Positions 18,713 through 31,087 of a stretch of DNA of 31,376 nt are shown in pieces; position 1 is the first letter of the stretch; each line of letters starts with the position of its first letter. A program made the translations under genes and the position numbers. The stretch is from a virus. Location of the stretch: UHGV virus genome UHGV-0241516. The stretch is one strand, 5' to 3'. Below the pieces are notes generated by a model. The model saw only the letters and a program-made list of their open reading frames with translations, did not search any database and was not told where the DNA came from.

Positions 18713-19063
18713 TTACTTAATCCGTTCACGGGCCGTCTTCGCCTTATGACACGGCCAGCACAGACTCTGTAGGTTACTGTCTGCATCGGTGCCGCCATGC
18801 GCTTTAGGGATGATGTGGTCAACGGTTTTCGCCTCGCGCACCACACCGGCACGCAGGCACAACTGGCACAGGCCTTTGTCACGCTTCAGCACACGCGCGC
18901 GGATAACGTCCCACTTCGAACCATAACCGCGCTGATGACGGGACTGGCCAGACTTGTATTGCTTCCAGCCTTCGCTTTTGTGGCTTTCGCAGTAGCCTGA
19001 TGGGTCAGTCGTGGTATGGCGGCAGCCGCGAACGCGGCAGGCTTTTGGGGTTCGTGGAGGCAT
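18713..19063 (-). CDS. HNH endonuclease (terminase-associated)
   Basis: 116 aa. Cys pairs (CRVRGC…C) plus HIIPKAHGGTDADSNLQSLCWPCHKAKT are the HNH signature. Directly upstream of TerS as in HK97. Confidence 0.85.
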   Translation of the reverse strand: MPPRTPKACRVRGCRHTTTDPSGYCESHKSEGWKQYKSGQSRHQRGYGSKWDVIRARVLKRDKGLCQLCLRAGVVREAKTVDHIIPKAHGGTDADSNLQSLCWPCHKAKTARERIK

Positions 19064-19190
19064 CTATTATCCCTGTAGTTTTCGTTAAATATCTAACCAT
19101 AACTGCAATCAGAAACCGCTTTAACACGGTTTGCTAAATAGACTTTTCAATCCAATGAATAAACGGCAAGTAAATACCAATCGTTCATTT

Positions 19191-19625
19191 TCATTTGAAT
19201 ACAAACTGTTCTGAAAGAATATTATGACAAATATATTTCGCCTGAATACTATTATCTCTCATTCTAATATATTCTTTGTGGGCAACAGATAAAGAACGAC
19301 AACCGCTGTTTACACGTGGGTATTTTTCCAACATATGTTCGCATATCAAAAAAGCATTATTAATAGCATTTAATTTATGGCTTAACTCTCGTAGCTCGGC
19401 CCTTTTTTCAATACGAACATTACGACTAAGAGATAAAGGTAGCTGTGATAATGCATTTGAATAATCAGCCACTGCCATTTTCAGAGCCATTTTGGCCTTC
19501 AGAGCCTCCTGTCGCCGCCAAACATTCATTGCCCAAAAACCTAATGTAACAGTTACAATTGAACCTAAAGCCGATACAGCTGACCACACAGTTCCCCAAG
19601 GCCAGTTAAGTAATGTATGCCACAT
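19191..19625 (-). CDS. Moron: membrane-anchored protein of unknown function in an AT-rich island
   Basis: ORF track start is GTG 19637; second ATG at 19625 has GGAGG 5 nt upstream. N-terminal hydrophobic helix, then a ~100-aa soluble domain. Local GC is visibly lower than the flanking phage genes. Confidence 0.6.
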   Translation of the reverse strand: MWHTLLNWPWGTVWSAVSALGSIVTVTLGFWAMNVWRRQEALKAKMALKMAVADYSNALSQLPLSLSRNVRIEKRAELRELSHKLNAINNAFLICEHMLEKYPRVNSGCRSLSVAHKEYIRMRDNSIQAKYICHNILSEQFVFK

Positions 19626-19993
19626 CATAACCTCCACTGAATGAAAAGGTTAGTTTATCGTAAGTGAACATCACTGGCACTATCTAAAGATTAGCTGCTC
19701 TACTAGTTGTACTCTCGATAATCTAAACAAAATGATACGTAATAAACCTGTTCATGACTAGCTCTACTAGACACATGTTTAATCATCTACAAACGATTTG
19801 TACAAACTTCCACTTTCATATTGGTCCAAAATGTTGGACTAATAGTTAATCACGATGCATATTTTATGTAAGCTGCTACATTACACTATAAAAACGCTGG
19901 CGTCTGAATTTAAGCCCATAAGTTTTATAAAATTATCATAATACACAGCTTTATTAGGCGCATTCGCACTGATAATGAAAAATATAACTCGAG

Positions 19994-20266
19994 CTATTTG
20001 TCTTTCGAATGCAAAATAGCGCGCCGTGATTCAATCTTTCTGATTCCAGTTTTATCAAAATTACATTGTCCCAAGGCTGACAATAGAGCAACATTCAACT
20101 CCAGACTGGTACCATACGTCAGCGGATTGGGTATAAACGGTACAGGAGTATCAGAAGTCAGGCTGGCTGGCAGTGGTGCCACCGGAGCGCTCACGTAAAC
20201 CGTTCGCGAATTTCCGCAACCGGTCAGCAGCGGCAGCAGGCACAGGACGTGAAGCACAATCATCAT
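19994..20266 (-). CDS. Rz1-like o-spanin lipoprotein (+1 frame, overlapping Rz 3' end)
   Basis: ATG ATG at 20266-20261. Signal peptide with lipobox LLTGC, Pro-rich mature part. Overlaps the last ~115 nt of Rz and extends past its stop. Confidence 0.65.
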   Translation of the reverse strand: MMIVLHVLCLLPLLTGCGNSRTVYVSAPVAPLPASLTSDTPVPFIPNPLTYGTSLELNVALLSALGQCNFDKTGIRKIESRRAILHSKDK

Positions 20267-21418: not shown

Positions 21419-22471
21419 TTATTTCCCCACCAGTTCACTTACCTCTTTCACCGTCTGATTAAACCGCTCTGACTCAAGTTCAACACCTAACGCCCGACGC
21501 CCCAGCGCCATTGCCGCTTTTATTGTGGAACCGGATCCCATAAAGAAATCAGCAACCAGATCGCCTTGTCGACTACTGGCACTGATTATTTGCCGGAGCA
21601 TATCCGCAGGCTTCTCACACGGATGTTTACCCGGGTAGAACTGAACGGGTTTATGCGTCCAGACGTCGGTATAAGGCACGGAAACTGATACGGAGAAATA
21701 GCGCCGGAGAGTTTTAAACTCATCCAGCAATTCATAATATTTGCGATTCAGTGAATCATAAGATGCCACCAGCTGGTGGTGTGGTTGTTCCAGTTGTTGT
21801 TCCTGAAACTTCTCTGCCGCTATACGGGAAAACAGTGCCTGCAACTTCCGGTAGTCAGCCTCATTCGGCAACTGCCACTGACTGGCACCAAACCAGTGGG
21901 AAACCATATTTTTCTTACCAGTGGCTTCGGCAATCTGTTTTGCCGTTATACCCAGTTCGGCACGAGCATCCCTGAAATACGATATCAGCGGTGCCATTAT
22001 GTGCTGTTTGAGTTCCCTTTCTTTTGCCGCATAGCCGTCACTTTTGCCGCGATATGGCCCCTGGTAATGTTCAGCAAACAGAACGCGCTCTGTGGCAGGA
22101 AAATATGCGCGCAGACTTTCTTTATTACACCCATTCCAACGTCCGGACGGCTTCGCCCAGATGATATGGTTAAGCACGTTGAAACGTTCACGCATCATGA
22201 TCTCAATATCAGATGCCAGGCGATGCCCACAGAACAGGTAAAGGCTTCCGGCAGGTTTCAACACCCGCCAGAACTGGGCCAGACAGTGGTCCAGCCACTT
22301 AAGGTAATCTTCGTCCCCTTTCCACTGATTGTCCCAGCCGTTGGGTTTCACCTTGAAGTAAGGCGGATCGGTAACAATCAGGTCAATGGAATCATCAGGC
22401 AGGGACTGAATAAAATGCAGGCAATCAGCGTTGATTAAATCAACACTGTTTATTTTTACAGTATTTTTCAT
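21419..22471 (-). CDS. DNA methyltransferase, beta-class (N6A or N4C), orphan
   Basis: 350 aa. DPPY (motif IV) near the N-terminus and FFMGSGST (motif I) near the C-terminus. No restriction partner seen. Confidence 0.8.
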   Translation of the reverse strand: MKNTVKINSVDLINADCLHFIQSLPDDSIDLIVTDPPYFKVKPNGWDNQWKGDEDYLKWLDHCLAQFWRVLKPAGSLYLFCGHRLASDIEIMMRERFNVLNHIIWAKPSGRWNGCNKESLRAYFPATERVLFAEHYQGPYRGKSDGYAAKERELKQHIMAPLISYFRDARAELGITAKQIAEATGKKNMVSHWFGASQWQLPNEADYRKLQALFSRIAAEKFQEQQLEQPHHQLVASYDSLNRKYYELLDEFKTLRRYFSVSVSVPYTDVWTHKPVQFYPGKHPCEKPADMLRQIISASSRQGDLVADFFMGSGSTIKAAMALGRRALGVELESERFNQTVKEVSELVGK

Positions 22472-22972: not shown

Positions 22973-23144
22973 AAGTTGTGTGGCGAAGTAACCACTCTTA
23001 ACACAGTAATCTAGAAAATGCGGACCGCGTTAGTGATTTTTATCTGTTTTTCCATTATTTTTTTGCCACACAGCTTAAAACGAAAAATAAAGCAGGCGTT
23101 GCCAAACCTCACGGTGACAGTTGGCTTAGAATGAGGACATATTT

Positions 23145-24164
23145 TTGGATAAGTTTGATGAGATTCATGTAGACATTGAATCTGAGCAGCAAGCCTTCGA
23201 TTTGCTTGAAAGCTATCTTGATGGTTATGGTTTACCTGACAGTTTAAGTTTCAACGGATGGCCAAACCTTACCATCAGATTAACCGGTGAAAAATTCAAC
23301 AGATCGCTAACACCTTCAGTTATGAAGGGATTTGTTGAAATGCAAGCTCAAATCAACAAATCATATGCCCTTGCCAAGTACGGTGTCCCTGACGTCCGCA
23401 AACTGACCAAAGAAGAACTTGATGCCCTAGAAATAGAAGTTACGGTAGAACAGGGTTCTTCAATAGTAGAAATCAACATTGATGGCTTTTTAACCAAACT
23501 CACACAGGAACTTGTTGGTAAAATGAACGCAACTGAGATCATGTTTACTGTTCTCGGCGCAGCAGTCATCTGGGGCGGAGTAACAGTATTTAAACGGTTC
23601 TTGGACAACCGTAAAGATATTCGCCTTGCAGAAATTGCTAAGGATGGAGAGAAAGAACATCTCCGGACTATGCAGATCATGAGCGAGCAAGAAACTAAAC
23701 GCCTGCGGGTTATTTCAGAAATGATTGCGGAAAAACCACTTCTCGATAACATGGACCGTATGTCGTATGACGCTAAAACCCAAATGGTCAAATCCTTTGT
23801 GCGTTCAGATAACGCTCAAATTGATGGCGTTACTATTGATTCTGAAATGGCGAAAGAGTTGGTTACGAATGCTCGTAGACGTTCATCAGAAATGAGGATT
23901 GATGGTATTTACCGAATTGAAGAAGTCAATAATACTGACCCAGAGAGTTTCAAAGTTAAGGTCCGACGCGTAGATACCGACCAACGTCTAACCTGCGTAG
24001 TTCAGGATGTTTTCCTTGATGAATCCGGAAACAAAGAAGCATTGCAGCGAGCTGAGTGGGAAAGAAAGCCTGTACATTTGAGCATTAACGCAAAACACGT
24101 CGATGGTGACATTAAGTCAGCAGTAATTCTCTATGTTCGAGATGTGGAACAAAAGCCCGAGTAA
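23145..24164 (+). CDS. Moron: 339-aa protein of unknown function with a central predicted TM helix, opposite strand to the prophage
   Basis: TTG start at 23145 with GAGGA 7 nt upstream; no in-frame ATG upstream after the stop at 23127-23129. Hydrophobic IMFTVLGAAVIWGGVTVF mid-protein. Lower GC than flanks. Ends 14 bp from the convergent Q stop. Confidence 0.7.
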   Translation: MDKFDEIHVDIESEQQAFDLLESYLDGYGLPDSLSFNGWPNLTIRLTGEKFNRSLTPSVMKGFVEMQAQINKSYALAKYGVPDVRKLTKEELDALEIEVTVEQGSSIVEINIDGFLTKLTQELVGKMNATEIMFTVLGAAVIWGGVTVFKRFLDNRKDIRLAEIAKDGEKEHLRTMQIMSEQETKRLRVISEMIAEKPLLDNMDRMSYDAKTQMVKSFVRSDNAQIDGVTIDSEMAKELVTNARRRSSEMRIDGIYRIEEVNNTDPESFKVKVRRVDTDQRLTCVVQDVFLDESGNKEALQRAEWERKPVHLSINAKHVDGDIKSAVILYVRDVEQKPE

Positions 24165-24178
24165 TCGGGCTTCAATAA

Positions 24179-24556
24179 TCAATCTTTAATTTCGGGGTCC
24201 ATCTCTAGACTAATTTCCAGCATCGATAGGCAGCCATCAATAAACCCCTCAGCCATCTGTATCTCAATGCGTATTAGTTTCTCATCCTTTTTACGAGCCT
24301 TGGCGAGCTTTCTTTTAGAGATACCGTATAGGTAATGGGCAACAAGAAGCGAATGTTCGTCCGGCCTTTTTTGCCTTAGACGAGCAAGACAACCTTCAAT
24401 AATTAATGCATCACTATCTGAACATGCCTGACGTGTTTTGCTTGTATAGGGAAGAAGCCCTTTAAACCCAGCAGCTATAGGAGAATAGTCTACTCCTGAA
24501 CTATCACTCGCCGCCCATGCTCCCCAACGATCCAGAACCATTTGAATATCACGCAT
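24179..24556 (-). CDS. Late-gene antiterminator Q (QuuD-like)
   Basis: Preferred ATG at 24556 with GGAGA 6 nt upstream. MRDIQMVLDRWGAWAA…IAAGFKGL… matches the QuuD-like Q N-terminus as recalled. Upstream of the lysis cassette. Confidence 0.7.
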   Translation of the reverse strand: MRDIQMVLDRWGAWAASDSSGVDYSPIAAGFKGLLPYTSKTRQACSDSDALIIEGCLARLRQKRPDEHSLLVAHYLYGISKRKLAKARKKDEKLIRIEIQMAEGFIDGCLSMLEISLEMDPEIKD

Positions 24557-24573
24557 CAACTTTCTCCACAAAA

Positions 24574-26387: not shown

Positions 26388-26777
26388 TCAGGCGGCTGCA
26401 CCCGCCGTTTTCTCGTACTTACTGATAGTGATCTCGACCTTCCCTTCCGGGATAACCGGTCCCCACTCCACCAGCATTCTTTTCACCTGGCTGTCGTCTT
26501 CCCACACACCCGCGTGGGTCAGGGCGTCAAACAGTGCCTTGTTATAGTTGTCCAGATCGCGGATCCGGTTATCCGGAGGAAACAACACGATCTCCACTGA
26601 AGCAGGTGCCGACGTTGGTTTTGGCAGACGACGTAACTGCTCAACTATTGCTGCACACGCCGCGCTCTGAAATTTTCGCCCCGCCGCGCTTATCAGGCTC
26701 TTACCAGCAAATGCCCCTTTGTTGGGGTGTCGCCAGTACGTGTTCACGCTGGGCGGGAAAGGAAGGATCAACTTCAT
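26388..26777 (-). CDS. rusA: RusA Holliday-junction resolvase
   Basis: 129 aa with RusA-like motifs (…PPSVNTYWRH…RDLDNYNKALFDALTHAGVWEDDSQV…). ATGA overlap with the upstream gene. Confidence 0.85.
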   Translation of the reverse strand: MKLILPFPPSVNTYWRHPNKGAFAGKSLISAAGRKFQSAACAAIVEQLRRLPKPTSAPASVEIVLFPPDNRIRDLDNYNKALFDALTHAGVWEDDSQVKRMLVEWGPVIPEGKVEITISKYEKTAGAAA

Positions 26778-27100
26778 ACTTTCAGGCCCCTCTCATGTAA
26801 CCAGTGGGCTGCACGCAGCCTGGCGTTTTCCTCACCGGCAAGCAGTGAGCGGATAATCCCGACCGCCTCGCTGTCGTCGTCCTTCACCGCGGTATGAAGC
26901 GTGATGCCCCGGGCCACGCCACGCTTTATCGTGATGACGCCTTTTTTCTCCAGTGCGCGAAGATGCTCCACCGCTGCATTCACTGAACGGTATCCCAGCA
27001 TGGTTGCCACCTCCTGATTGGTTGGCGGGAAGCCACGTTCTTTCTGATAAGAAATCAGCATATCCAGCACCTGCTGCTGGCATTGAGTTAACGTCGTCAT
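26774..27100 (-). CDS. LexA N-terminal DNA-binding-domain-like protein, no peptidase domain
   Basis: 108 aa. Residues ~6-65 parallel the LexA wHTH (TxxQQxVLDxI…GxPPTxxEVAxxLGYRSxNAAxEHLxALxKKGVIxI). Ends long before any S24 domain could fit. Confidence 0.6.
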   Translation of the reverse strand: MTTLTQCQQQVLDMLISYQKERGFPPTNQEVATMLGYRSVNAAVEHLRALEKKGVITIKRGVARGITLHTAVKDDDSEAVGIIRSLLAGEENARLRAAHWLHERGLKV

Positions 27101-27750
27101 GCCGCCATCTCCCTGACCAGTTTTTCTGCCTGCTGGCGAACCTGCGCCAGAAAGGCCTCACCACATGCCTCAAGTTCATCGCGCCCGATGTAGCTGATTG
27201 CCGGTCCCTTCCAGGTCTTGTCGAAAACAGCAATAGCACCAGCGAAGAAAGCGCCTGTCGGCACCTGCTTCTCATCCTTCGGGATAAACCAGGCAGGCAG
27301 TTCAAAACCAATACGCCCGCGAATAAAAGCAATATGATCTGCATCTTCCGGCCACCACACTTCGCTGGTGGCAGCTTTGATCAGGAAAACATAGCGCCCG
27401 CCTTTATCACGCATGGCACTGGCATGCTTCATGATGTAACGCATGCCGGTGATGTATTGCCCCTCATGCTGACTGGCGCGGCTGTATGGGGGATTACCAA
27501 AGGCAGCACCTTTAAGCTCCGCAAGGCGTTCTGACCAGTCATGCGCCAGCGCGTTGTCTTCCGCCGTGTAATACGCAGCACATTTGGCGTTATCACCGTC
27601 AGTGAACAGATCCAGAACAAACGGGCCAAACAGGGTGTTAATTCCCCAGAAAATGTTGTCCGGCGTGCGCCACTGATCGCCCACTTCCTTCAGTTCATGG
27701 GCTGGTTTGTTCCGCAGTTCCGCCAGCGCCTGGCAATATTTATTACTCAT
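27097..27750 (-). CDS. Phage Dam-like N6-adenine methyltransferase
   Basis: ATG at 27750 overlaps the upstream stop (TAATG). NPPY motif (GNPPYSRA). Confidence 0.8.
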   Translation of the reverse strand: MSNKYCQALAELRNKPAHELKEVGDQWRTPDNIFWGINTLFGPFVLDLFTDGDNAKCAAYYTAEDNALAHDWSERLAELKGAAFGNPPYSRASQHEGQYITGMRYIMKHASAMRDKGGRYVFLIKAATSEVWWPEDADHIAFIRGRIGFELPAWFIPKDEKQVPTGAFFAGAIAVFDKTWKGPAISYIGRDELEACGEAFLAQVRQQAEKLVREMAA

Positions 27751-28238
27751 TAAGCCCCCACGTAATTCCCTGAGAGATACCACTCTTCACCTGATGCAGC
27801 CTGCTTACTGCTTTTCCGTAAACACCGTTCACGACGCGCCAGAAAATTGTTTCGTTCTGGCTGGGAGTGGCTTTCACGGAATGCCGCCATCCACACGGTT
27901 GCAGCACGACGGTATAAGCCCCTGGACTCCAGTTCTTCAGCCTGGCGGGTCAGGCACAAAATCACCTGGGGATCGTTAGTGCCGACATAGAAATTGCGCA
28001 CAGGTCTGGTTTCTCGAACTGGTTGTGGTTCCGGTTCCTGCGCTCTCTCAGTCAGGCGCGGGAAATGTCTGCGTGTATCTCCTTCACAACGGTGAGCCAC
28101 ACGCCCACTCTGACGTAACTTGCTTGCTGACTGCAGAACGCGCTGCCGTGAGTAACCTGCAAAAGCATCCGCAATGTCTCCGGAAGTACATCCCGGATGG
28201 GCTTCAATGAATTTCTGAACTTCATTCAAAAGACTCAT
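27750..28238 (-). CDS. PerC-family-like transcriptional regulator with N-terminal wHTH-like region
   Basis: Preferred ATG at 28238. Motif AEELESRGLYRRAATVWMAAF resembles the PerC core (LE..GLWRRAA..W) as recalled. Confidence 0.5.
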   Translation of the reverse strand: MSLLNEVQKFIEAHPGCTSGDIADAFAGYSRQRVLQSASKLRQSGRVAHRCEGDTRRHFPRLTERAQEPEPQPVRETRPVRNFYVGTNDPQVILCLTRQAEELESRGLYRRAATVWMAAFRESHSQPERNNFLARRERCLRKSSKQAASGEEWYLSGNYVGA

Positions 28239-28240
28239 GA

Positions 28241-29182
28241 TCACCCCCTGAATCCTGCCGGGATCTGGCTGTAGTCCACGTTGTCGTAACTGGATTTGAA
28301 GTACGGGTCTTCGCGTTTTTCGGTGTACGTGCTAACGGACGGTGATAAGCGCAGGGAAAGCTCATCCCATTTTTCCCGCAACTTCGACGGGCTGAGCACG
28401 TTACGGCACCAGAACGGATCGCGGCTGACGCGGCTGTACATCTCGCAGATTTGTTTGTGAGTACGACCATCCTGCACACACATCAGGCGAATTTCGTTTG
28501 CCCAGGCTGTCCAGTTCGGTTCTTTGGGACGAACCACCTCGCCGTCACATTCGGCGGCTTGCTCGTACAGGGCGATGATTTTTTTCCAGAGCCACTGTGC
28601 GCAGGTCAAATCATCCTGCGTTCCCCACTGGCGCTTTTTAGGGCTGAATACAACCGCATCAGGATGGCGAGTTAAAAAATCCTGTTCATCCGTCTGCGTG
28701 TCCGGTTGCGAAGCGTCCGGACGAGAAGGTTTTTTATCTGACGGATCATGTTTTGATTTTACTGACGGATCCCCGCCAGATTCTGACGGGTGAAAACCCG
28801 CTTTTTTGCCAGATTTCGACGCATCAAATTTTGACGGGTCAGATTTTGATGCGTCAGATTTTGACGGGTCAGAATCTGACAGTTGAGAAAATGCCGCTGC
28901 CTGAAGCTTCGCAACGTTAAGCTGATAAACATTCGACGCATTGCGGTTACCCTGGCGACGCGCCTTACGCGTTAACCAGCCTTCTGCTTCCAGCCGTGCG
29001 ATAGCCGTTCTGACGGTACTCATTCCCGCGCCAATCTGGCGGGCAATGGTTTCAATTGATGGCCAGCACACACCTTCGTCATTACTGAAATCAGCCAGGC
29101 GGGCCATAATTGCCACGCTGGATAATTTCATGCCTGATGCAGCGCAACCATCCCATACATAGCCGGTTAATTTAGTGCTCAT
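28241..29182 (-). CDS. Replication initiator, lambda O-like, with ori iterons inside the gene
   Basis: 313 aa. N-terminal HTH-like region, then a linker of repeated SDxSK pentapeptides encoded by the iteron array, then a C-terminal domain. ATG at 29182-29180. Confidence 0.7.
   Translation of the reverse strand: MSTKLTGYVWDGCAASGMKLSSVAIMARLADFSNDEGVCWPSIETIARQIGAGMSTVRTAIARLEAEGWLTRKARRQGNRNASNVYQLNVAKLQAAAFSQLSDSDPSKSDASKSDPSKFDASKSGKKAGFHPSESGGDPSVKSKHDPSDKKPSRPDASQPDTQTDEQDFLTRHPDAVVFSPKKRQWGTQDDLTCAQWLWKKIIALYEQAAECDGEVVRPKEPNWTAWANEIRLMCVQDGRTHKQICEMYSRVSRDPFWCRNVLSPSKLREKWDELSLRLSPSVSTYTEKREDPYFKSSYDNVDYSQIPAGFRG
28735..28885. repeat. Iteron array (putative ori): 4 tight 15-bp tandem repeats plus 3-4 degenerate copies
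   Basis: Read directly: 15-bp units at 28811-28870 (AGATTTCGACGCATC / AAATTTTGACGGGTC / AGATTTTGATGCGTC / AGATTTTGACGGGTC), degenerate copies at 28735-28792 and 28871-28885. Confidence 0.75.
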
Positions 29183-29191
29183 GACCGACCT

Positions 29192-29530
29192 CTATTTCCC
29201 TGAATTTACGACGAAACTGTTCGAGCGGGCTGAAGCACTCATGCTCATAACCTTCGCGGAGGTAGATAACCCGTTGTGTTTCCGGCTCCCAACGAATGAC
29301 TCTGACGGGCACTCCGTAGTGATCTTTGAACCAGCGGTTAACTTGTCGCAAAGGACTGTCTCCTTCTGCCGGTTGAAATCACCCACAGCCCACTCTGCAA
29401 AGCTGTGGGTTACAATTTCCCTGTCACCTGGTACATTTACTGCATAGCAATACTCCACCTTCGCTTTTCCACCCGGTACAGGAAGCGCAATCAGTTGCGA
29501 GCGACGGTAGTGTGTTGTTAAACTGTTCAT
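29192..29530 (-). CDS. Hypothetical protein (112 aa) coupled between CII-like and O-like genes
   Basis: ATG at 29530-29528 overlaps the upstream stop (ATGA). Ends 10 nt before the O-like start. No recognisable motif. Confidence 0.5.
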
Positions 29531-30090
29531 GCGTTAGTTTCTCCACAGTCACGACACGCCACGGCGCCCGGAGCTGCACACTCGCGGGCGTCATTACTTT
29601 CTGAAATGCAAAAAATTTTGTAGACCAGTGCTGCATGCTCCTGCAGCTTCGAAATTGAGAGGTACAGCTCGTCGTTAATTGCTGTCTTCTCATGCGGTTC
29701 CACTACACCGTCTTCAATTGCTGAACGAATCTGTTTTGAATAACTGCCGATCTGTTCAATGACTTCCAGCAGGCGCTGGTTAATATCGGCGTTGTCCACA
29801 TCCTCGACGTCAGGAAGAGACACAAAGACGCCATTTGCAGACTGCGCCACAGCGTCAGCAATGAAGTGAGTTCCACCAGCACGTTGCAAAATCATTGCCC
29901 ATCCCAGCGGGAAAATCTGATCGCCATCGGCACGAAGGCGGTTAAATAATGCGTTCTCTGTTACATCCAGCCAGTCAGCTGCTTCAGCGTAACCACCCGG
30001 CAACTTTGCGATAGTTTTTCTGACAGCTTTCACGTACCACTCAGGCTGTTTTTCTACTTTCCAGTGATGCTTACCCACGGTTAGCCTCAT
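29527..30090 (-). CDS. Early regulatory protein, CII-like (CP76 family) or YdaT-like; uncertain
   Basis: 187 aa, immediately downstream of the Cro-like gene. Family tentative. Start could be ATG 30090 or GTG 12 nt in. Confidence 0.45.
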
Positions 30091-30121
30091 CGTTCTGTGG
30101 TTAAAAATTGAAAGTGTTCTG

Positions 30122-30322
30122 CTAATCTTTCGGATAGATATCCGGTCTTAAGTCAGATTTCGTAATTGCACCTGACGTGCATTGCTCAAGTTTTTTAGCC
30201 AGCACAAAACTGGCTTTTTTATAGCCATTGAAAACCAGCCGTAAGTAGCCAGGTGTTGAGCCAACTTTTCCGGCCAACTCGCCCTGCTGTTCTTTGGTTA
30301 AAGAGTCCCAATACGCTTTCAT
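30122..30322 (-). CDS. Cro-like HTH repressor
   Basis: 66 aa (MKAYWDSLTKEQQGELAGKVGSTPGYLRLVFNGYKKASFVLAKKLEQ…). ATG at 30322-30320 with GGAGG upstream. The ORF track's 167-aa frame is a spurious upstream extension. Confidence 0.75.
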   Translation of the reverse strand: MKAYWDSLTKEQQGELAGKVGSTPGYLRLVFNGYKKASFVLAKKLEQCTSGAITKSDLRPDIYPKD

Positions 30323-30412
30323 ACAATATGTACCTCCGGTGTACATATTACATGATTGAAATGAACCTTCAAGATACTTGTACCTTAACGGTACAAGGGT
30401 TTTAATTTCGTT
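30323..30412. promoter_or_regulatory. Immunity switch: two palindromic operators and candidate divergent promoters
   Basis: Palindromes AATATGTAC-N7-GTACATATT (30325-30349) and CTTGTACC-N5-GGTACAAG (30377-30397). Candidate PR-like promoter on minus: -35 at plus 30367-30372, 16-bp spacer, -10 at plus 30345-30350. Candidate PRM-like on plus: TTGTAC (30378-30383), 17 bp, TTTAAT (30401-30406). Confidence 0.6.
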
Positions 30413-31087
30413 ATGAAAACAATCCATGACATCCGGCGGTCTAACGCCAGAAAACTGAGAGATGGTGTTGGCGGGAATTCTTCCTTTGCCACTATGATTG
30501 ATCGCGAGCCAACCCAGACCAGCAGGTTTATGGGAGATGGTGCTACTAAAAATATCGGTGACAGCATGGCACGACACATCGAAAAATGTTTCGACCTGCC
30601 TGTCGGATGGCTCGATCAAGAACACCAGACAACGAACATCACAAAAAAACCTGATGTTTCAATCACTAATAAACAAATCACATTAGTCCCTGTCATATCA
30701 TGGGTACAGGCCGGAGCATGGAAAGAAGTTGGATATTCTGAGGTTGATTTGAGCACAGCAGAAACGTATCCCTGCCCTGTACCCTGTGGGGAAATGACTT
30801 ATATCTTGCGGGTGATAGGTGATTCAATGATTGATGAGTACCGCCCGGGAGACATGATTTTTGTCGATCCTGAAGTACCTGCCTGCCACGGTGACGACGT
30901 TATTGCATTGATGCACGATACAGGCGAAACCACCTTCAAAAGGTTGATAGAAGATGGGACACAGCGTTATCTCAAAGCGTTAAACCCAAACTGGCCTGAG
31001 CCTTACATTAAGATCAACGGTAATTGCTCTATAATTGGTACAGTGATTTTCTCAGGAAAACCAAGAAGATACAAAATCAAAGCCTAA
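30413..31087 (+). CDS. CI-like repressor (HTH + S24 LexA-like autocleavage domain)
   Basis: 224 aa. ATG at 30413, TAA at 31085-31087. C-terminal half has the S24 peptidase signature (…VIGDSMIDEYRPGDMIFVDP…). Confidence 0.85.
   Translation: MKTIHDIRRSNARKLRDGVGGNSSFATMIDREPTQTSRFMGDGATKNIGDSMARHIEKCFDLPVGWLDQEHQTTNITKKPDVSITNKQITLVPVISWVQAGAWKEVGYSEVDLSTAETYPCPVPCGEMTYILRVIGDSMIDEYRPGDMIFVDPEVPACHGDDVIALMHDTGETTFKRLIEDGTQRYLKALNPNWPEPYIKINGNCSIIGTVIFSGKPRRYKIKA

Follow-up and report, generated by a model that had tools for sequence, protein, structure and literature searches.

The closest described relatives of the replication module considered here lie in Shigella phages SfII, SfIV and SfV, in coliphage mEp460, and in the CPS-53 prophage of Escherichia coli K-12 as the gene pair yfdO-yfdN. 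All carry essentially the same DNA (97–99% identity) and a common gene order, i.e., cII, small open reading frame (ORF), initiator, PerC-family gene, Dam, LexA DNA-binding domain (LexA-DBD) gene and RusA; in the GenBank entry for SfII the pair is labelled 'O protein family protein' and 'PerC transcriptional activator family protein'. SfIV differs in being without the methyltransferase (PMC3851460), and otherwise there is nothing substantive to separate them. The module was analysed in a stretch of 31,376 nucleotides from UHGV virus genome UHGV-0241516 (the whole of this stretch is hereafter the window), where an initiator gene containing its own iterons is followed directly by a gene for a YfdN-like protein of the PerC family, and where a helicase-loader gene is lacking. 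These features were interpreted as replication by the initiator only, through the DnaB-DnaC complex of the host, accompanied by a YfdN-like phage regulator; the probability of this interpretation is put at about 0.6. The two genes concerned are as follows:

28241–29182, minus strand: replication initiator, 313 aa (HTH_36, PHROG 391)
27750–28238, minus strand: YfdN-family gene, 162 aa (PerC, PF06069)

The module resembles the O and P region of lambda in having a two-domain initiator with iterons and an AT-rich region inside its own gene, in that its N-domain, along with the iterons, assorts in the mosaic independently of the C-domain, and in being expressed from pR after cII. It departs from lambda in having no P gene, in an HTH_36-type initiator without a Phage_rep_O match, in iterons that are 15 bp apart, and in an unrelated C-domain to which an extra conserved tail is added. 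Modules described as 'initiator-solo' are reportedly treated in the review by Weigel and Seitz (2006). Iteron plasmids, for which the comparison is one of analogy, take their helicase from the host DnaB-DnaC pool. As in pSC101 (RepA), R6K (pi) and RK2 (TrfA; reviewed in PMC4980987), one initiator and its iterons occur here with no loader gene; unlike the present case, the plasmid origins usually carry DnaA boxes, none being evident here, and the initiator folds differ. The prophages of O157 Sakai use partners of the lambda-P, DnaC or DnaB type (PMC2669165). Lambdoid prophages with a DnaC-type loader, such as Sp4, Sp10 and Sp12 (PMC2669165), share with the window a C-domain that is 62–65% identical and the same ...IPxGFRG tail (locus L162; related loci are given L numbers throughout), but DnaC-type lambdoid prophages encode a DnaC homologue directly after the initiator, whereas the window module does not. 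HTH_36 proteins are also reported from the non-lambdoid Eru replication units of Stx phages, where they take position one or two beyond cI in types Eru5, 6, 8, 11 and 13; PerC is unmentioned in the papers describing them (PMC8044961, PMC8951638).

The initiator was identified through several profile matches. HTH_36 was matched at aa 23–70 (Pfam, E = 4.3e-11) and, together with matches to GntR, HTH_29 and DnaD_N, indicated a winged helix at aa 21–89, while PHROG 391 ('replication initiation O-like') spanned the entire protein (E = 1.2e-135). The Pfam family Phage_rep_O (PF04492) gave no match at E ≤ 0.01. Because only the 'O-like' PHROG families matched, the protein is predicted to belong to the functional class of lambda O while standing outside the lambda O sequence family. 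Its parts were delimited as follows:

28898–29182, minus strand: N-terminal winged-helix DNA-binding domain, about aa 1–95 (HTH_36, GntR, HTH_29, DnaD_N)
28328–28630, minus strand: helical C-terminal domain, about aa 185–285, the candidate domain for recruitment of the host helicase or loader
28244–28315, minus strand: conserved C-terminal tail REDPYFKSSYDNVDYSQIPAGFRG, predicted to be disordered (predicted local distance difference test, pLDDT, about 50)

Comparison of sequences indicates that the initiator is made up of three evolutionary modules: the N-terminal winged helix with the iteron-bearing linker, the helical C-domain, and the C-terminal tail. The N-domain and C-domain were swapped mosaically in L003, L005, L170 and L186, and at least four initiator architectures precede the same yfdN-like gene. 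The first is the window type; the second combines another N-domain with a window-type C-domain (L003, L170); the third has a window-type N-domain joined to a Phg_2220_C domain (L168, L175, L181–184); and the fourth has a third kind of C-domain (L005).

The predicted origin lies inside the initiator gene, where two features adjoin:

28739–28884, no strand assigned: origin iteron array in the Ser/Asp-rich linker (Tandem Repeats Finder, repeat search, regular expression)
28721–28770, no strand assigned: the most AT-rich stretch of the gene, a candidate unwinding element (67.5% AT, 40-nt windows)

The Ser/Asp-rich linker DPSKSDASKSDPSKFDASKSG is the product of four tandem iterons spaced 15 bp. Tandem Repeats Finder identified 28810–28873 (period 15, 4.3 copies, score 100), and a repeat-family search widened the array to its full limits through families D1 and D2. 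The 14-bp expression (C/G)C(G/A)TC(A/G)(A/G)AAT(C/T)TG(A/G) matched five times, at minus-strand starts 28867, 28852, 28837, 28822 and 28789; the four tandem iterons occupy 28809–28867 and the fifth copy is found 33 bp farther along, at 28776–28789. Each iteron contains the inverted repeat GTCA-N5-TGAC, a dyad that a dimeric winged-helix binder would be expected to have. The AT-rich stretch lies directly past the iterons in the direction of transcription. DnaA boxes were not enriched (54 matches with one mismatch or fewer, against 51.7 expected) and none was perfect; the sole match within the initiator gene, at 28582, is about 150 bp off the iterons. Beyond the fifth iteron there are two degenerate half-sites, at about 28768 and 28744. 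Since both contain GATC and a phage Dam gene is situated two genes downstream of the initiator, the origin may be sensitive to methylation.

A gene to load the helicase at this origin was not found. Among the 25 families listed of the 42 Pfam families matched by the 34 window ORFs, there was no helicase or loader family, and in the complete 41.5-kb genome of SfII no helicase, primase or loader is annotated. Neither the window nor SfII has a P gene for the initiator C-domain to bind. The first-pass annotation had allowed for a loader gene just outside the window on the early operon; that operon is filled from cro to Q, and SfII supplies no candidate. An initiator with iterons and without a loader or helicase gene is the combination that characterises initiator-only iteron replicons, and it is the combination seen here. 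The same annotation had proposed an O-like initiator with in-gene iterons, a PerC-like gene next to it and no loader or helicase, all of which was borne out, and had offered two explanations for the lack of a loader. According to one, the module is degenerate, its loader gene having been lost and the prophage being unable to replicate alone. The missing gene would agree with this, as would the copy of the module in K-12 CPS-53, which we take to be defective. However, SfII, SfIV and mEp460 all have the gene pair in intact form, and phages with the module are viable, SfIV having been UV-induced, seen to form plaques and propagated on S. flexneri (PMC3851460). The arrangement is also kept across genera at 25–48% protein identity, which implies purifying selection on the arrangement. 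Degeneracy was rejected on these grounds for this class of module, and we attach next to no probability to it.

The other explanation, that the initiator recruits host DnaB/DnaC, was the better of the two, and depends on the genes that follow relatives of the C-domain. Where the initiator has a C-domain 62–65% identical to that of the window, the next gene encodes a DnaC homologue of 248 aa, which aligns over its full length with E. coli DnaC (PDB 6qel, E = 2.4e-74). The gene directly downstream of ORFs that end in ...GFRG was then classified across 120 viral contigs, using a reference set that included no DnaB-type sequence. It was YfdN-like in 84 of the 120, DnaC-type in 23, Dam in six and DUF977 in one; two downstream ORFs, both short, were unclassified. 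A lambda-P-type gene was seen in this place in none of the 120 contigs, and none had both a YfdN-like and a DnaC-type gene. It would appear that DnaC-family loaders are the partners of this initiator lineage, and that phages without such a gene use DnaB-DnaC of the host. We infer the latter because relatives of the C-domain precede a phage DnaC homologue; and, as the phage has no helicase-loader gene of its own, the host loader is probably borrowed.

On this interpretation, the N-terminal winged helix of the initiator would bind the iterons within its own coding sequence and open the adjacent AT-rich stretch, after which the helical C-domain, perhaps together with the disordered C-terminal tail, would recruit host DnaB-DnaC directly. 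The last step is modelled, by analogy, on the Rep proteins of iteron plasmids. In the YfdN-like protein, the winged helix probably supplies specificity for a DNA site, and the PerC domain probably works through protein contacts, as the Pch domain does in displacing H-NS.

The C-terminal tail followed the consensus ...(S/N)YDxVDYSx(I/L)PxGFR(G/S/T/Q), whatever the C-domain, and is predicted to be disordered. It was present in the window and in L162, L167, L168, L175, L181–184 and L186, and the peptide was conserved with different codons in different lineages. The next gene has its AGGGGG ribosome-binding site in the last tail codons. Conservation of the tail by this site alone was rejected, since the codons differ and since the tail persists at a distance of 40 nt from the next gene (L163) or ahead of a gene of another family; nor does the ribosome-binding role of the last codons explain the conservation of IP..GF. 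Co-variation of the tail with the YfdN-like protein was looked for and not seen, L183 and L184 having near-identical YfdN-like proteins and different tails. The occurrence of the tail with either a DnaC-type gene or no loader is the most interesting loose end. The tail is found on at least four initiator architectures with otherwise unrelated N- and C-domains, and might be a peptide, portable between them, on which DnaC-family loaders or DnaB dock, although this suggestion is a doubtful one; if true, it would be what enables a large group of enterobacterial phages either to carry a DnaC copy or to do without a loader and take that of the host. It is less likely that the YfdN-like protein is a new, non-AAA+ loader adaptor with the tail as its handle. 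A DUF977 protein of 140 aa comes after the replication genes in sister lineages that are DnaC-type or loader-less (L162, L163–L165); its N-terminus looks winged-helix-like by eye, and it is a possible positional analogue of the YfdN-like protein.

The YfdN-like protein itself, which has 162 aa if begun at ATG and 164 aa if begun at GTG (28244), matched PerC (PF06069) with 36.9 bits against a gathering cut-off of 22.6, over aa 100–151 and profile positions 5–56 of 90. This was its only Pfam match, there being none to Phage_lambda_P (PF06992) or IstB/DnaC (PF01695), and a match to the ANR family was weak (22 bits, under the cut-off of 32). A scan of 1.8 billion representative proteins produced a coherent family of relatives, 140–165 aa in length and 25–48% identical. 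An AlphaFold2 model of this family, based on 36 sequences, had a mean pLDDT of 83.5 and was laid out as a winged helix (about 3–61), a disordered linker, three helices (about 90–148) and a short conserved tail. The domains correspond to:

28059–28232, minus strand: winged-helix domain of the YfdN-family protein (AlphaFold2 model)
27798–27971, minus strand: PerC domain, three helices, with the motif LE..GL.RRAATVW..AF (PF06069, AlphaFold2)

The modelled fold is therefore a winged helix with a three-helix PerC domain, and is not that of a loader. An AAA+ or P-loop motif, or a loader-like fold, was looked for in the 162-aa protein and not found, and none of the solved loader structures matched the family profile. 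It shares the PerC domain, and carriage on mobile elements, with PerC of enteropathogenic E. coli and with PchA/B/C of enterohaemorrhagic E. coli (EHEC). However, PerC and Pch are single-domain proteins (group 1 Pch proteins have about 105 aa, and group 1 pch genes are 315 bp, PMC5931665) whereas the YfdN-like protein adds a winged helix and disordered linker, and its gene, unlike theirs, is situated in a phage early operon.

The position of yfdN-like genes was compared among related loci; a narrower-alignment genome scan gave 11 loci, and two scans of viral contigs returned near-identical loci only. Most of the divergent relatives were placed directly 3' of an initiator with an overlap of 4 nt, and had a methyltransferase, then a LexA-DBD gene and RusA, behind them; relatives adjoining an initiator were found in L167, L168, L170, L175, L177, L181–184 and L186. 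Three exceptions were observed: a full-length relative at 41% identity directly after a lambda-P gene (L166), another at 41% identity that has type I restriction-modification genes before it and Q as the very next gene (L308–310), and a YfdN-like remnant before Q (L185). In Klebsiella (L188), an initiator with the same C-domain has a methyltransferase directly after it.

The adjacency of the two genes raises the possibility that the YfdN-like protein is a replication accessory in the place of P or DnaC, i.e., an adaptor docked on the initiator, for instance at its GFRG tail, that would link the initiator with DnaB or DnaB-DnaC of the host. The gene does adjoin and overlap the initiator in most of the lineages sampled (Escherichia, Shigella, Enterobacter, Kosakonia and metagenomic; 25–48% identity), but the full-length relatives that follow lambda-P or adjoin Q are away from this arrangement, the latter being away from any initiator. 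The last 33 initiator codons travel with the yfdN-like gene when the body of the initiator is swapped (types A and C); yet the GFRG tail also occurs without that gene, where a DnaC-type, DUF977 or methyltransferase gene comes next, and the L183 and L184 proteins do not differ with their tails. YfdN-like and DnaC-type genes are mutually exclusive in the slot after GFRG-tailed initiators (85 against 23), a pattern that two phage lineages with wholly different downstream blocks can explain. Finally, transcription regulators are what its fold and family point to. An adaptor was considered unlikely on balance. A substitute for P, moreover, ought never to be found with another loader, and the L166 relative follows lambda-P. 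Since relatives also follow lambda-P or precede Q, the YfdN-like protein was not regarded as a P substitute, and the gene is best placed, from its distribution, in the region between the replication genes and Q, outside the replication machinery. The ideas that a PerC-like gene stands in for P or DnaC, and that the 162-aa protein might prove to be a loader homologue, both found no support, given its fold, its neighbours and its single Pfam match.

The 162-aa gene looks like a delayed-early phage regulator of the YfdN family. This view follows from membership of PerC, from the weak ANR match, and from Pch of EHEC, which acts as an H-NS anti-silencer (PMC4764244). The first-pass annotation had considered that the gene could be lysogenic-conversion cargo. 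Such a regulator would control virulence or host physiology when expressed from the prophage, like PchABC. The gene is a member of the right family for this; overexpression of PchE altered curli, flagella and adhesion (PMC6265319, PMC7369912), and PerC-like genes of phage-inducible chromosomal islands can modulate LEE (locus of enterocyte effacement; PMC11773190). Against this, PchD and PchE, the group 2 and 3 PerC homologues, barely activated ler (no activation by PchD, less than two-fold by PchE), these data concerning PchD and PchE and not the 162-aa protein, and deletion of yfdN served as assay background only (PMC5931665). The gene is also enclosed within the cI-repressed pR operon, where it overlaps both neighbours. 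A scan of 26700–30500 for sigma-70-like promoters gave none on the minus strand, which is weak evidence because a simple consensus was used. A promoter of its own, as expected of a moron, was therefore not found for the yfdN-like gene, and it does not have the character of typical conversion cargo. In addition, prophages of Enterobacter and of Kosakonia, which is plant-associated, keep the gene in the same position, and half of the complete E. coli genomes contain the module. Conversion cargo was accordingly judged to be quite improbable.

Several points weigh against the preferred interpretation, in which the initiator recruits host DnaB-DnaC and the YfdN-like protein is a regulator. The literature searched contained no study of helicase loading in the SfII, SfIV, SfV, mEp460 or CPS-53 modules, and neither a dependence of these phages on dnaC or dnaB nor a direct contact between the initiator and DnaB or DnaC is known from experiment. 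Iteron plasmids usually need DnaA, yet this origin is without perfect or enriched DnaA boxes. The mutual exclusivity of YfdN-like and DnaC-type genes, and the coupling in translation of the former to the initiator gene in most lineages, are also compatible with a loader-adaptor role. Lastly, PerC-family proteins have variable, sometimes opposite, effects on LEE (PMC11773190), and to call the YfdN-like protein an 'anti-silencer' is an extrapolation for that reason. Were the host DnaB-DnaC route true, iteron-plasmid replication would have in this module its natural counterpart among phages, and the capture of a helicase-loader complex by an initiator alone could be studied in a simple system. 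In annotation, a PerC-family regulator gene found here should not be taken for virulence cargo, and a missing P or DnaC gene should not count as a defect when the intactness of a prophage is judged. The gene pair occurs in about half of complete E. coli genomes, in Shigella serotype-converting phages and in some Stx2c phages.

The module is part of the early-right (pR) operon of a temperate phage of E. coli and Shigella, of the SfII/SfIV/mEp460 type. Every slot from cro to Q could be assigned, in the order cro, cII/CP76, DUF4222, initiator, YfdN-like, Dam, LexA-DBD, RusA, KilA-N, DUF968 and Q. The remaining features delimited in and around this operon were:

30413–31087, plus strand: cI (window annotation and Pfam)
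29527–30090, minus strand: CII/CP76 protein (window annotation and Pfam)
29172–29351, minus strand: small DUF4222 gene directly 5' of the initiator, whose start it overlaps (PF13973, E = 8.6e-19)
27097–27750, minus strand: phage Dam methyltransferase, the next gene of the operon after the YfdN-family gene (PF05869, E = 1.2e-45)
24179–24571, minus strand: Q, at the end of the early-right operon

Inspection of the sequence showed that operon genes overlap or abut their neighbours; for example, the ATG of Dam overlaps the stop codon of the YfdN-family gene (TAATG). Downstream of Dam are the protein with a LexA DNA-binding domain only, then RusA, KilA-N and DUF968/HNH. A DUF4222 gene occupies the equivalent position in L170 and L175. 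In the window, a 112-aa ORF (29192–29530, minus strand), annotated as SfII_40 in SfII, overlaps the 59-aa DUF4222 ORF; the 112-aa call is probably spurious and the 59-aa gene is favoured, because the latter is backed by the DUF4222 Pfam match and by NCBI annotation.

Module DNA was 97–99% identical in SfII (97.5% to the window), SfIV, mEp460, PhiR49_1, Kati and others, the region was 100% identical to strain FORC_081, and some Stx2c phages share part of it. The gene pair was present in 2728 of 5426 complete E. coli genomes, where the NCBI labels are 'helix-turn-helix domain-containing protein' and 'yfdN: PerC family transcriptional regulator'. The module is already known, very common and already annotated, and it is the mechanism of helicase loading that is proposed here from sequence.

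Further observations concern other parts of the window. The LexA-DBD protein (26774–27100, minus strand, 108 aa) matched PF01726 (E = 2.9e-19) and TIGR00498 at positions 1–91 of 203. It is without an S24 peptidase and follows the methyltransferase in almost every related locus; binding to SOS boxes with no susceptibility to cleavage is a possibility. Just beyond Q, on the opposite strand, there is an ORF of 339 aa with a TTG start (23145–24164, plus strand), for which no NCBIfam or PADLOC match was found. It is situated in a low-GC patch (41% in 23001–24000) and resembles SfII_50 in position, and could be a moron or a defence gene. A second DNA methyltransferase, N6_N4_Mtase, was identified between Q and the lysis genes (21422–22471, minus strand; PADLOC MTase_II, E = 2.6e-152), where SfII has different genes. 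The GC content falls sharply to 37% at 19001–20000, between the terminase/HNH genes and the lysis genes, and this may be a cos-proximal or accessory-gene region.

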